Assembly (NCBI RefSeq): GCF_044647545.1
Contig: NZ_CP172818.1
Length of the DNA: 64,000 nt
Reading direction: 5' to 3' (one strand)
Origin: Escherichia coli
GTDB lineage: Bacteria; Pseudomonadota; Gammaproteobacteria; Enterobacterales; Enterobacteriaceae
Both the position numbers and the translations under genes were made by a program. The notes below the pieces were generated by a model. The model searched no databases. It was not told the origin of the DNA and was given only the letters and a program-made list of their open reading frames with translations. Below, in pieces: positions 14,052-40,684 of the stretch; position 1 is the stretch's first letter; the number at the start of each line of letters is the position of its first letter.

Positions 14052-17000
14052 TTACACCTTTTCCACATTCACAAGGAAGGACTTAAACTCCGGCGTCTGC
14101 GTGTTCGCATCACCCACGAATGGCGTTAACGTATTGGCAATAAAGCCTTTTTTCGCAACGCCTTCATAGCCCCAGTGAATCGGAATACCGATGGTATCGA
14201 TATCTTTGCCGTTCGCTTTCAGCGTGCGAATACGTTTGGTCACCACCGCTTTGGCTTTGATATAGCCACGGTTGGAGGAGACTTTCACAGTATCGCCCTG
14301 GGCAATGCCAAGTTTATTCGCCAGCGACTCCCCGATTTCCACAAACTGCTCTGGTTGCAAAATCGCATTCAACAGCGCGTGTTTGGTCCAGTAGTGGAAG
14401 TGCTCGGTCAGACGATAGGTGGTTCCGACATACGGGAACTTATCGGCTTTACCCAATGCTTCGGCGTCGTCTTTAAAGATACGCGCAGCCGGGTTCGAGA
14501 TAACGTTTGGATGCAGCGGGTTAGTTCCCAGCGGCGTTTCAAACGGCTCGTAGTGTTCCGGGAACGGACCTTCCGCCATCTTATCGAGGGCAAACAGACG
14601 TCCCATGCCTTCCTGCTGCATGATAAACGGCCCTACGCCGCTGCCCGGAGGCGCTGCGCTGTAGTCCGGAATATCCCAGCCGGTCCACTTAGTGCCGTCC
14701 CATTTCAGCAACTGACGCTTCGGATCCCATGGGTTACCCTGCGGATCTGCGGAGGCGCGGTTATACAGAATGCGGCGGTTAAGCGGCCATGCCCATGCCC
14801 AGCCCAGCGTGTTACCGAGGCCAGACGGATCGGCGTTATCACGACGCGCCATCTGGTTACCTTCTGGCGTCCAGCTACCGGCGAAAATCCAGCAGCCACA
14901 GGAGGTCGTACCGTCATCGCGCAGTTGGGCGAACGAGCTAAGTTGTTGGCCTTTCTTGACGATAACCGCACCGGTTGCCGGATCGGTAATATCGGCCAGC
15001 GCCTTACCGTTGCTCTCCATCGCCACTTCTTCCGACTTCGGCTCATGCGGAATGGCGTAGTTCCAGGTCATATTCAGCACCTGGTCCGGGTTTGCGCCAC
15101 CCTGTTCGGCATACATCTTGCGCAAGCGCAGGAAGATACCGGAGAGGATCTCGCCATCAGTCAGCGCAATCCCTGGGGCGTCCGCACCTTTCCAGTGCCA
15201 CTGTAACCAGCGACCGGAGTTAACGATTGAACCGTTCTCTTCTGCGAAGCAAGTCGATGGCAGACGGAACACTTCGGTCTGGATCTTCGACGAGTCAACT
15301 TCGTTCAGCTCACCGTGGTTCTGCCAGAAGTTAGAGGTTTCAGTGTTCAGCGGGTCGATGGTGACGAGGAACTTCAGTTTCGACAGACAGCCGATCACTT
15401 TGTTTTTGTTCGGGAATGAGGCAACAGGGTTAAAGCCCTGGCAGATATAGCCATTGACCTTGCCCTCTTTCATCATCTCGAAGTATTGCAGGACGTCGTA
15501 GCCTTTATCCCACTTCGGCAACCAGTCAAAGCCCCAGTTATTTTCCGCCGTCGCTTTATCACCAAAGAAGGCCTTCATCATGGAGACGAAGAATTTCGGG
15601 TAATTGCCCCAGTAGTTAACCTGGCCTTCCAGCAGTGGTTTCGGCGTGTTGGCGGTAAGGTAAGTTTGCAGATCGGTCTGCTTCTCGCTTGGCAACGTCA
15701 TGTAACCTGGCAGACTCTGCGACAGCAGCCCCAGGTCGGTCAGCCCCTGAATATTGGAGTGACCGCGCAGGGCGTTAACGCCGCCGCCAGCCATCCCCAT
15801 ATTGCCGAGCAGCAGCTGGATCATCGCCATCGTACGAATGTTTTGCGCACCAATGGAGTGTTGCGTCCAGCCGAGGGCGTAGAGGAACGACGCTGTTTTA
15901 TCGTGAGCACTGGTTTCGGCGATGTATTCGCAGACTTTCAGGAACGCGTCTTTTGGCGTACCGCAGATGTTTTCAACCACATCTGGCGTATAACGGGAAA
16001 CGTGCTGTTTCAGCAAGTTCCACACGCAACGTGGATGTTGCAGCGTGGTATCGCGTTTGGCGAAGCCGTTTTCGTCCAGTTCGTAAGTCCAGGAGGATTT
16101 ATCGTACTTGCGTTTTTCCGCGTCGTAGCCGGTGAACAGGCCATCTTCAAAGCCGTAATCCTCACGCACGATCAGGCTGGCGTTGGTATAGGCTTCGGTG
16201 TATTCGCGGTTGAATTTTTCATTGTTCAGCAGGTACAGCAATACGCCTGACAGGAAAGCAATGTCAGTCCCGGAACGAATAGGGGCATAGTAGTCAGCCA
16301 CCGCCGCCGTACGTGTAAAGCGAGGATCGATCACAATCAGCTTCGCGCCGTTGTGAATTTTGGCTTCCATCGCCCAGCGGAACCCGACCGGGTGAGCTTC
16401 AGCGGCGTTACCGCCCATCACCACGACGAGGTTGGCATTCTTGATGTCGACCCAGTGGTTGGTCATCGCACCGCGACCAAATGTTGGAGCAAGACTTGCT
16501 ACCGTTGGTCCGTGTCAGACACGCGCCTGGTTGTCGACCGCGAGCATACCCAGCGCGCGGGAGAATTTTTGCGTTAAATAGCCGGTTTCGTTACTCGACG
16601 CGGAAGCACACAGCATCCCGGTGGAGAGCCAGCGGTTAACAGTCACGCCTTCGGCGTTTTGCGCAATGTAGTTCGCATCGCGGTCTTCTTTCATCAGTTT
16701 GGCGATGCGATCAAACGCCTCTTCCCAACTGATTTGTTGCCATTTATCAGAACCTGGCGCACGGTATTCCGGAAACTTCAGGCGGCTTTCGGAGTGGATG
16801 AAATCCACCAGGCCAGCGCCTTTCGGACAAAGTGCTCCGCGGTTGACCGGGTGATCCGGGTCACCTTCGATATGGAAGATAGATGCTTTGGCGTTTTTTG
16901 CTCCGTCACCGAGGCTGTACATCAACAGCCCACAGCCTACGGAACAATAGGTGCAGGTATTACGGGTTTCGCGGGTGCGCAGCAGTTTATACTGCCGGGT

Positions 17001-36988: not shown

Positions 36989-37683
36989 GAAGCAGAAACC
37001 ATCAGATAGCCGCGACCACGCAAGGTTTTAAACCACGGGTGACCATCTTTACGATCCGGCAGTTTACGACGCAGGTTGGAAATGTGCATATCAATAGCGC
37101 GGTCGAAAGGCGTCAGGCGTTTGCCCAGCACTTCCTGGCTTAAATGCTCACGGGAAACCACCTGACCCAGATGCTGTGCCAGCAAATAGAGCAGGGTAAA
37201 CTCAGTGCCGGTTAACTCCAGCGTTTGCCCGTCGAAGCTGGCTTCCTGACGGCCTGGATTCAGCACTAAGGCATCAACTTCCAGTGTCGGTGAACCGTTG
37301 TCGTTGTTTTGCTGTTGCTCGCTCCAGTGCGAACGGCGCAGGATCGCGCGAATACGTGCCACCAGCTCACGATCATTAAACGGTTTCGGGAGATAGTCAT
37401 CTGCGCCCAGCTCAAGGCCGAGAACGCGATCAAGTTCACTGCCGCGCGCCGTCAACATAATGACAGGCGTCTGGTGTGTCTGGCGAAGTGCTTTTAATGT
37501 GTCGATACCATTTTTCTTCGGCATCATTACATCAAGCAAAAGTAAATCAATGCTGTCGTCCAGAAGATCAAGCGCCTGTTCCCCATCGTGGGCAACAATC
37601 ACGTTGAAGCCTTCCATCTCGAGCAGCTCCTTTAATAGGGAAGTCAGCTCTCGGTCATCATCAACTAACAGGATTTTATTCAT
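36985..37683 (-). CDS. cpxR: Envelope-stress response regulator (OmpR family)
   Basis: 232 aa ORF starting MNKILLVDDD; overlaps cpxA start. Confidence 0.9.
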   Translation of the reverse strand: MNKILLVDDDRELTSLLKELLEMEGFNVIVAHDGEQALDLLDDSIDLLLLDVMMPKKNGIDTLKALRQTHQTPVIMLTARGSELDRVLGLELGADDYLPKPFNDRELVARIRAILRRSHWSEQQQNNDNGSPTLEVDALVLNPGRQEASFDGQTLELTGTEFTLLYLLAQHLGQVVSREHLSQEVLGKRLTPFDRAIDMHISNLRRKLPDRKDGHPWFKTLRGRGYLMVSAS

Positions 37684-37738
37684 TGTTTAAATACCTCCGA
37701 GGCAGAAATTACGTCATCAGACGTCGCTAATCCATGAC

Positions 37739-37753
37739 TTTACGTTGTTTTAC
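37739..37753 (-). promoter_or_regulatory. CpxR box GTAAA-N5-GTAAA in the cpxRA/cpxP divergent region
   Basis: Minus-strand reading of 37739-37753 is GTAAAACAACGTAAA, an exact match to the published CpxR consensus. Confidence 0.55.
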
Positions 37754-37832
37754 ACCCCCTGACGCATGTTTGCAGCCTGAATCGTAAACTCTCTATCGTT
37801 GAATCGCGACAGAAAGATTTTGGGAGCAAATG

Positions 37833-38333
37833 ATGCGCATAGTTACCGCTGCCGTCATGGCCTCAACGCTGGCAGTCAGTTCATTAAGCCACGCTGCTGA
37901 AGTCGGTTCAGGCGATAACTGGCATCCGGGTGAAGAACTTACGCAGCGCAGTACGCAGAGCCATATGTTCGACGGCATAAGTTTAACCGAACATCAGCGT
38001 CAGCAGATGCGAGATCTTATGCAACAGGCCCGGCACGAACAGCCTCCTGTTAATGTTAGCGAACTGGAGACAATGCATCGCCTTGTCACCGCAGAAAATT
38101 TTGATGAAAACGCTGTGCGCGCACAGGCAGAAAAAATGGCGAATGAGCAAATTGCTCGTCAGGTTGAGATGGCAAAAGTCCGCAACCAAATGTATCGCCT
38201 GTTAACGCCGGAGCAGCAAGCGGTTTTAAACGAGAAACATCAACAACGAATGGAGCAGTTGCGCGACGTGACGCAATGGCAAAAAAGTTCATCGTTGAAG
38301 CTATTGAGTAGTAGCAACTCACGTTCCCAGTAG
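37833..38333 (+). CDS. cpxP: Periplasmic Cpx pathway inhibitor/adaptor
   Basis: 166 aa ORF with signal peptide and LTxxQ motifs. Confidence 0.9.
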
Positions 38334-38342
38334 TAAACCCTG

Positions 38343-38400
38343 TTTTCCTTGCCATAGACACCATCCCTGTCTTCCCCCACATGATGTGGGGGTTTTTTTT
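38343..38400 (+). ncRNA. cpxQ: Probable CpxQ sRNA (processed cpxP 3' UTR ending at the cpxP terminator)
   Basis: 3' UTR of cpxP ending in a strong terminator; assignment rests on published knowledge of CpxQ, boundaries approximate. Confidence 0.4.
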
Positions 38401-38401
38401 A
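38374..38401 (+). terminator. Rho-independent terminator of cpxP
   Basis: Hairpin CCCCCACATGATGTGGGGG followed by TTTTTTTT. Confidence 0.65.
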
Positions 38402-38481
38402 TCCTCAATTTGCCTGCTGCTTAATGTATTGCAGATGATTTGCTTCCGTTATACTACCGTCAGTTGATAGCGGGAGTATTT

Positions 38482-39384
38482 ATGAATCAATCTTATGGAC
38501 GGCTGGTCAGTCGGGCGGCGATTGCTGCGACGGCGATGGCTTCGCTGCTATTGCTGATTAAAATTTTTGCATGGTGGTATACCGGGTCGGTGAGTATTCT
38601 CGCCGCGCTGGTGGATTCGCTGGTGGATATCGGCGCGTCGTTGACGAATTTACTGGTGGTGCGATATTCCCTGCAACCTGCCGACGATAATCACTCGTTT
38701 GGTCACGGTAAAGCTGAGTCCCTCGCGGCGCTGGCGCAAAGTATGTTTATCTCCGGTTCGGCACTATTCCTGTTTTTGACGGGTATTCAACATCTGGTAT
38801 CTCCAACACCGATGACAGATCCAGGCGTCGGGGTTATCGTGACAATTGTGGCGCTAATTTGTACGATTATCCTTGTCTCGTTTCAGCGGTGGGTGGTGCG
38901 CCGGACGCAAAGCCAGGCGGTGCGGGCTGATATGCTACATTACCAGTCTGATGTTATGATGAACGGCGCAATTCTGCTGGCGCTGGGGTTGTCCTGGTAC
39001 GGCTGGCATCGCGCCGATGCTCTGTTTGCATTGGGAATCGGCATCTATATTTTATATAGCGCGTTACGCATGGGATATGAGGCGGTACAGTCATTACTGG
39101 ATCGCGCATTGCCTGATGAAGAACGGCAAGAAATTATTGATATCGTGACTTCCTGGCCGGGTGTTAGCGGCGCTCACGATCTTCGCACGCGGCAGTCAGG
39201 GCCGACCCGCTTTATTCAGATTCATTTGGAAATGGAAGACTCTCTGCCTTTGGTTCAGGCACATATGGTGGCGGATCAGGTAGAGCAGGCTATTTTACGG
39301 CGTTTTCCGGGATCGGATGTGATTATCCATCAGGACCCCTGTTCCGTCGTACCCAGGGAGGGTAAACGGTCTATGCTTTCATAA
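38482..39384 (+). CDS. fieF: Cation-diffusion-facilitator iron/zinc efflux protein
   Basis: ORF track 38440-39384; trimmed to [13 protein letters not shown] start giving 300 aa. Confidence 0.85.
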
Positions 39385-40583: not shown

Positions 40584-40684
40584 GCCTGATGCGCTTCGCT
40601 TATCAGGCCTACATGAATTCTGCAATTTATTGAATTTGCAAACTTTTGTAGGCCGGATAAGGCGTTCGCGCCGCATCCGGCATG
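40584..40684. repeat. REP element pair between pfkA and sbp
   Basis: GCCTGATGCGCTTCGCTTATCAGGCCTAC and GTAGGCCGGATAAGGCGTTCGCGCCGCATCCGGC units. Confidence 0.6.

Follow-up and report, generated by a model that had tools for sequence, protein, structure and literature searches.

Several bacterial sRNAs originate from the 3' ends of mRNAs. In the case of SdhX, SroC, MicL-S, NarS and GlnZ, as in that of CpxQ, RNase E frees the 3' end of an mRNA together with its terminator, and the resulting fragment is bound by Hfq and regulates its targets through a short seed. These RNAs differ from CpxQ in their parental genes, their sequences and their regulons, and no sequence relationship exists between them and CpxQ.

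CpxQ is derived from the tail of the stress-response mRNA cpxP. Its biogenesis by RNase E and Hfq was described in Salmonella by Chao and Vogel (2016, Mol Cell 61:352; as cited in PMC9438474 and PMC6755755). The RNA is expressed from the cpxP promoter (PMC5736990), which is the most strongly Cpx-induced one (PMC4817254). Its release from the cpxP mRNA is carried out by RNase E with Hfq, and mutation of the cleavage site abolishes CpxQ (PMC9438474). For E. coli, published work includes Northern blots showing the RNA as well as data on its stability and on its dependence on RNase E (PMC4817254, PMC6755755, PMC10250213, bioRxiv 10.1101/341578); processing is lowered in rne-3071 strains (bioRxiv 10.1101/341578), and the mature RNA, which begins with U and has a natural 5' monophosphate, is very stable, its half-life exceeding 16 min (PMC10250213). 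The mRNAs that it represses include nhaB, skp, agp, ydjN and fimA (PMC9438474), to which the 5' UTR of cfa has been added, a pairing validated by the compensatory pair C11G/G135C (Bianco et al., PMC6755755). For both nhaB and cfa it is the 5' end of CpxQ that acts as the seed (PMC6755755).

An RNA from the same position in another genus had been published two years before CpxQ was named. Hrs1 of Erwinia amylovora (Zeng and Sundin, PMC4070566) is an Hfq-dependent RNA with an intrinsic terminator, encoded between cpxP and fieF and co-oriented with them; it was detected on Northern blots, reported as 74 nt long as against 58 nt for CpxQ, and described as Erwinia-specific.

Identity and position of cpxQ

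The window considered here is a stretch of 64,000 nucleotides of Escherichia coli DNA, in which positions 38343–38400 of the plus strand almost certainly correspond to the known sRNA gene cpxQ and form an ordinary feature of the species. This gene is not new: its characterisation dates back to 2016 and it has a curated entry in the K-12 reference genome, where MG1655 carries the ncRNA cpxQ (b4716, “small regulatory RNA CpxQ”) at NC_000913 4106330–4106387, a gene of 58 nt that begins 10 nt past the final base of the cpxP stop codon. When this offset is transferred to the window, the gene falls exactly on 38343–38400 (TTTTCCTTGCCATAGACACCATCCCTGTCTTCCCCCACATGATGTGGGGGTTTTTTTT, 58 nt), separated from the cpxP stop by a 9-nt spacer (TAAACCCTG). 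The initial annotation, which had called a probable CpxQ in the cpxP 3' UTR, thereby agrees with the curated K-12 gene in coordinates, strand and context (cpxR diverging from cpxP, followed by cpxQ and fieF). It had described its boundaries as approximate, a caution that proves unnecessary, as the interval coincides with the curated MG1655 gene to the nucleotide.

Alignment to the known CpxQ had been set beforehand as a check, and it gives 57 identical positions out of 58 with b4716 (nt 1–41 and 43–58). The single difference lies at 38384, the third base of the terminator loop, which is A in the window and C in K-12. Divergence in the seed region had been named as grounds for abandoning the identification; this objection fails because the only difference is the terminator-loop base, nt 1–31, i.e., the whole seed region, being the same as in K-12. 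The A/C change is predicted to have no effect on the terminator stem. The allele of the window is in fact the majority form, since 4192 of 5424 E. coli records match its 58-mer at 99 % identity or more. ATGATG is likewise by far the most frequent loop among the 80 species compared below, and the A form also occurs in a phage attachment core. At the cpxP locus, many E. coli chromosomes match the region at 100 % identity. Since the RNA is that of K-12 apart from one loop base, we infer with high confidence that CpxQ would be expressed and behave in the source strain as it does in K-12.

Genomic context and parental transcript

The gene order in the window is cpxA and cpxR on the minus strand, then cpxP, fieF and pfkA on the plus strand. 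The cpxP coding sequence, from which the parental mRNA of CpxQ is transcribed, extends from 37833 to 38333 (plus strand) and ends with a TAG stop codon at 38331–38333. This assignment follows the list of open reading frames, the RefSeq annotation at 100 % identical matches and the length of 501 nt of MG1655 cpxP. The coding sequence is preceded by a tandem ATG ATG (37830–37835), the mechanical reading frame starting at 37830 and the 501-nt curated gene at 37833. The sRNA therefore sits in the 3' UTR of cpxP, on the cpxP strand, and ends at the cpxP terminator, as expected of CpxQ.

Two mechanical reading frames run antisense to cpxP and cpxQ, at 38086–38382 (98 aa) and 38240–38380 (46 aa) on the minus strand. 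They are unannotated in the annotated E. coli records inspected and were discarded.

The consensus and the role of the CpxR box are familiar from studies of the Cpx regulon. In the cpxR-cpxP intergenic region, upstream of cpxP, a direct repeat resembling such a box (GTAAAACAACGTAAA) is present at 37739–37753 on the minus strand. It is the only exact GTAAA-N5-GTAAA within the 64-kb window, a count that is not above chance once one mismatch is allowed.

A consensus scan of 37600–38600 revealed no sigma-70-like promoter, a result that fits the processing of CpxQ from a longer transcript better than its separate transcription. Some 3' UTR-derived sRNAs do arise as primary transcripts (bioRxiv 10.1101/341578), and CpxQ might by analogy be initiated at a promoter of its own located in the terminal part of cpxP, in the manner of MicL within cutC. 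Beside the outcome of the promoter scan, this origin is contradicted by the published RNase E-dependent processing, by cleavage-site mutants that lack the RNA and by its natural 5' monophosphate, and U is moreover a poor initiating nucleotide (PMC10250213); we give it next to no credence.

Terminator and RNA structure

The 3' end of the gene consists of a Rho-independent terminator (38374–38400, plus strand), identified by terminator scan, folding and covariation. Its stem-loop occupies 38374–38392 and its U8 tail 38393–38400. The hairpin, CCCCCACA-TGA-TGTGGGGG, comprises eight base pairs, six of which are G-C, closed by a 3-nt loop and followed by T8. It is the only terminator-like site detected by the consensus scan on the plus strand within 37600–38600. 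The terminator that the initial annotation had placed 3' of cpxP is thus borne out by the scan, with its 8-bp stem and T8. The shorthand in which it had been written, C5-ACATGATG-G5, describes a genuine hairpin but lacks one T, the actual string being C5-ACATGATGT-G5.

The plus strand is predicted to fold with a free energy of –17.4 kcal/mol (z = –2.7 relative to shuffled sequences). In this fold nt 1–13 are unpaired, nt 14–30 form a hairpin of five base pairs, nt 32–50 make up the terminator hairpin and the U8 tail completes the molecule. The 13 nt at the 5' end (UUUUCCUUGCCAU, 38343–38355, plus strand) constitute the single-stranded seed of CpxQ; they are unpaired in both the minimum free energy and the centroid structures and are invariant in 80 species save for the length of the U4/U5 run. 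The small hairpin that follows, AGACA(CCAUCCC)UGUCU (38356–38372, plus strand), rests on the fold, and its CCAUCCC loop (38361–38367) is a candidate second seed.

Comparative data also argue for the terminator stem. Among 25 distinct variants, two pairs have changed on both sides (A-U / U-A / C-G in one case and C-G / U-A / G-C in the other) while pairing was kept. Overall, 96 % of the stem cells in the alignment are paired, compared with 44–61 % when the 3' partner is slid, and the observed covariation score was reached by none of 500 shuffles of the 25-variant alignment. Covariation is uninformative on the small hairpin, because its five pairs never vary.

The minus strand folds as well as the plus strand, so that the orientation of the RNA cannot be read from the fold; it is set by where the T-run lies, by the neighbouring genes and by published work. 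The terminator hairpin with its long U tail also provides the sequence module expected of an RNA to which Hfq would bind.

Conservation across the Enterobacteriaceae

The locus was compared across species for which CpxP was found, with one genome per species. The set consists of the 80 closest species, from more than 20 genera including Escherichia, Citrobacter, Salmonella, Klebsiella, Enterobacter, Kosakonia, Kluyvera, Raoultella, Franconibacter and Atlantibacter; the more distant orthologs of Erwinia, Yersinia and Serratia lie outside it. One locus was too short, so that 79 of the 80 loci were usable along with the window.

In all of them, the stop codon of cpxP is followed by a spacer of 5–23 nt that invariably ends in CCCTG. 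Next comes T4-5CCTTGCCATAGACACCATCCCTGTCTT without a single substitution, after which a C-rich hairpin leads into a T-run. Ahead of the terminator, 31 nt are thus the same in 80 species, the U4/U5 run excepted. The sequences on either side diverge: mean identity to the window is 56 % over the last 63 nt of cpxP and 35 % over the 40 nt past the T-run. A 3' UTR conserved above the level of cpxP is the very pattern given for CpxQ in PMC9438474, where its 3' UTR was found to be more conserved than the preceding gene.

In Salmonella enterica, the RNA also follows the cpxP stop, with a spacer of 8 nt instead of the 9 nt of the window, and the sequence of CpxQ is the same as in the window in the two subspecies compared. 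Some target sites nevertheless differ between Salmonella and E. coli, for example that in nhaB (PMC10250213).

Taken together, the z-score of the fold, the covariation of the stem and the invariant 31-nt body between diverging flanks establish that the feature is more than chance. They bear equally on the alternative that the interval is only the intrinsic terminator and 3' UTR of cpxP, devoid of any function of its own. A terminator is needed at this site in any event, and the stable portion of the fold is mostly terminator. However, this explanation leaves unaccounted for the invariant 31-nt stretch that precedes the stem, and published deletion, overexpression and compensatory mutations demonstrate regulation in trans; for skp and cfa, there are already reports of complementation in trans with nothing more than the 58-nt RNA. 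The chance that the terminator is the whole story is accordingly minimal.

Processing and proposed mechanism

RNase E favours a purine at position –2 of its cleavage sites. At the mature 5' end of CpxQ, the presumed site reads CCCUG / UUUU, its upstream half CCCUG being located at 38338–38342 (plus strand) and directly abutting the sRNA. This context is invariant in 80 of 80 species, the spacer always ending in CCCTG, and cleavage here would follow from the literature on CpxQ. The base at –2 is a U, which counts against the site.

On the basis of these elements and of published work, the following course of events may be envisaged. CpxR~P would switch on the cpxP promoter, as described in the literature and as the CpxR-box-like repeat upstream suggests. 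Transcription would then cross cpxP and end at the intrinsic terminator (38374–38400), for which anatomy and covariation are documented above. According to the literature, RNase E, assisted by Hfq, would subsequently cut between G38342 and U38343 and so free an RNA some 58 nt long with a 5' monophosphate, and Hfq seated on the terminator hairpin and the U tail would probably protect CpxQ. The unstructured 5' end (UUUUCCUUGCC) would pair with the nhaB, cfa, skp, agp, fimA and ydjN mRNAs reported as targets, and the CCAUCCC hairpin loop probably pairs with target mRNAs too. Again according to published data, pairing blocks translation or promotes decay by RNase E, so that stressed cells carry a smaller burden of inner-membrane and periplasmic proteins.

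Pairing of the seed with target mRNAs

The RNA of the window was matched with MG1655 target sequences. The best duplex predicted with cfa involves U4–C11 of CpxQ and positions –128 to –135 of cfa, with 8 bp and C11 opposite G-135; the seed is therefore complementary to a validated target in the published register. With the 13-nt seed, this duplex has an energy of –14.1 kcal/mol, a value equalled by 1.6 % of shuffled seeds.

Two sites are predicted in nhaB. The first lies in the coding sequence at +306 to +315 (MG1655), its register being 1 nt off the “U7” numbering of PMC10250213. The second is in the initiation region, –17 to –5 from the ATG, and comprises 11 bp at –15.1 kcal/mol (1.4 % of shuffles equal it); according to PMC10250213 the initiation-region site of nhaB is not conserved in E. 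coli. As for skp, its ribosome-binding region is predicted to be complementary to the 5' seed at –18 to –6, and nt 18–25 of CpxQ (ACCAUCCC) to GGGAUGGU within –21 to –12 (–15.1 kcal/mol, equalled by 1 % of shuffles). When the full 31-nt sequence was used as the query, the nhaB and skp duplexes were no better than those of shuffled sequences (41 % and 49 % of which equal them, respectively). Short seeds were used for target prediction because the 31-nt query is thus uninformative for nhaB and skp.

Hrs1, Rfam and the strand of the RNA

A scan of the whole window with Rfam 15 revealed no family at gathering threshold at the cpxQ site, and Rfam has no CpxQ family. On the plus strand, matches to NsiR1, RyhB, anti-hemB and OmrA-B (E <= 10, at most 20 bits) were discarded as chance matches to a hairpin followed by a U tail. 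The only substantial match is to RF02628, Hrs1, at 38328–38400 on the minus strand (44.5 bits, E = 1.2e-7). With a gathering threshold of 56.4 and an orientation opposite to that of cpxP, it falls outside the family by the criterion of Rfam.

This resemblance is nonetheless real homology. The reverse complement of the Hrs1 consensus aligns with CpxQ, with which it has in common CCCUGUUU, CCUUGCCA, AUCCCUGUCU and the C-rich terminator, and the score of only 44.5 bits is due to sequence divergence. As an Hfq-dependent RNA with a terminator, co-oriented between cpxP and fieF, Hrs1 is the Erwinia ortholog of CpxQ. In the consensus of RF02628, a G+C-rich hairpin comes after an initial A7, as in a terminator read backwards; the family thus appears to have been modelled on the wrong strand, as the reverse complement.

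Taken at face value, the orientation of the Hrs1 match would mean that the functional RNA is encoded on the minus strand, and the minus strand folds as well as the plus strand. This possibility can be virtually dismissed, as the A-run precedes the hairpin on that strand and no T-run comes after it, so that there would be no terminator, while the source paper of hrs1 gives the strand of cpxP and fieF and a terminator (PMC4070566), K-12 has its curated cpxQ on the same strand as cpxP and the Hrs1 score is below the gathering threshold.

No feature underlies cpxQ in the PGAP-annotated RefSeq E. coli records among the matches listed for the 58-nt query; of the records inspected, only that of the curated MG1655 names the gene. 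Automated pipelines miss cpxQ because it has neither a PGAP feature nor an Rfam family, and because the Hrs1 model is apparently opposite-stranded.

Other Rfam matches are dispersed over the window. They consist of a SECIS_3 selenocysteine insertion element at 16462–16520 (minus strand, 84 bits), presumably inside a formate dehydrogenase gene; four matches to naRNA4 (CssrE), i.e., REP-type repeats, at 26358–26606 (plus strand) and 35524–35601 (minus strand), three of them in tandem and one just downstream of cpxA; the ES036 (CssrF) sRNA at 40605–40646 (minus strand); the ClpQY (hslVU) promoter element at 54298–54355 (minus strand); and the L31 ribosomal protein leader at 58967–59019 (plus strand).

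A phage attachment core overlapping cpxQ

A stretch of 47 bp at 38357–38403, made up of nt 15–58 of cpxQ and the following ATC, recurs as the attP core of Wphi-type P2-like phages, as seen from identity with phage genomes and from lysogen junctions. In phage Wphi, 47 of 47 positions are identical to the core, which lies there between ogr and int, and the phage records contain 62 matches including Wphi. A search with the 58-nt query detected 6097 places in the 5424 E. coli records, the extra copies being partial. One such partial copy is found in a 32-kb circular P2-like phage genome, where it adjoins an integrase gene.

The lysogen NZ_CP063459 illustrates the outcome of integration. Its P2-like prophage is inserted between cpxP and fieF, with a copy of the core on each side; at attL an intact cpxQ is followed by int, and at attR phage DNA is followed by the core and the fieF flank. 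Six of the 80 species representatives likewise carry a gene for a Wphi-Int-like protein directly after cpxQ. The site of the Wphi1 prophage was given as “cpxP-fieF” in the E. coli W genome paper (PMC3032704), and our literature search found no paper that links cpxQ with attB or an integrase. With an attP core identical to the bacterial sequence and attL/attR junctions in a lysogen, the locus qualifies as a Wphi-type attB, at which recombination may be expected. In the window this attB is unoccupied, since a single copy of the core is present and there is no prophage. Since the core is identical on both partners, integration leaves cpxQ intact.

It could be asked whether use as an attachment site, instead of the function of an RNA, has imposed the conservation of this sequence. 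The attP core found in Wphi and in many P2-like phages does match positions 38357–38403 exactly, and lysogens are common. Yet the invariant block reaches 19 nt 5' of the core, into nt 1–14 of CpxQ and the preceding CCCUG, and hosts are not expected to keep an attB for the benefit of the phage. Causality more plausibly runs in the opposite direction, as integrases often act at sites that were conserved beforehand, the 3' ends of RNA genes among them. The sites rybB, cyaR and ssrA are listed in PMC3032704. Conservation as an attB is thus extremely improbable as an explanation, and the function of CpxQ as an RNA remains the one that we retain.

The attP copy in the phage, or the promoterless copy at attR, could yield a truncated CpxQ-like RNA with only the second seed if it were transcribed into. 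The phage copy (nt 15–58 of cpxQ) holds the CCAUCCC loop and the full terminator, and such an RNA might bind Hfq. Through it, the phage could influence some members of the Cpx regulon, such as skp. We consider this quite unlikely, because ogr of Wphi has its own predicted terminator, a hairpin with a T-run right after the stop codon and before the core. The same element weakens the idea that the ogr mRNA of Wphi ends at the CpxQ-type terminator.

Implications

The identification of cpxQ in this strain matters little by itself. What is worth passing on is the annotation gap, the apparent strand error in Rfam and the overlap with the phage attachment core. Because of the first two, an sRNA of functional importance, invariant throughout the Enterobacteriaceae, escapes automated pipelines. 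The overlap of cpxQ with the Wphi attachment core adds another case to those in which integrases target the conserved 3' ends of sRNA genes and leave the gene intact.
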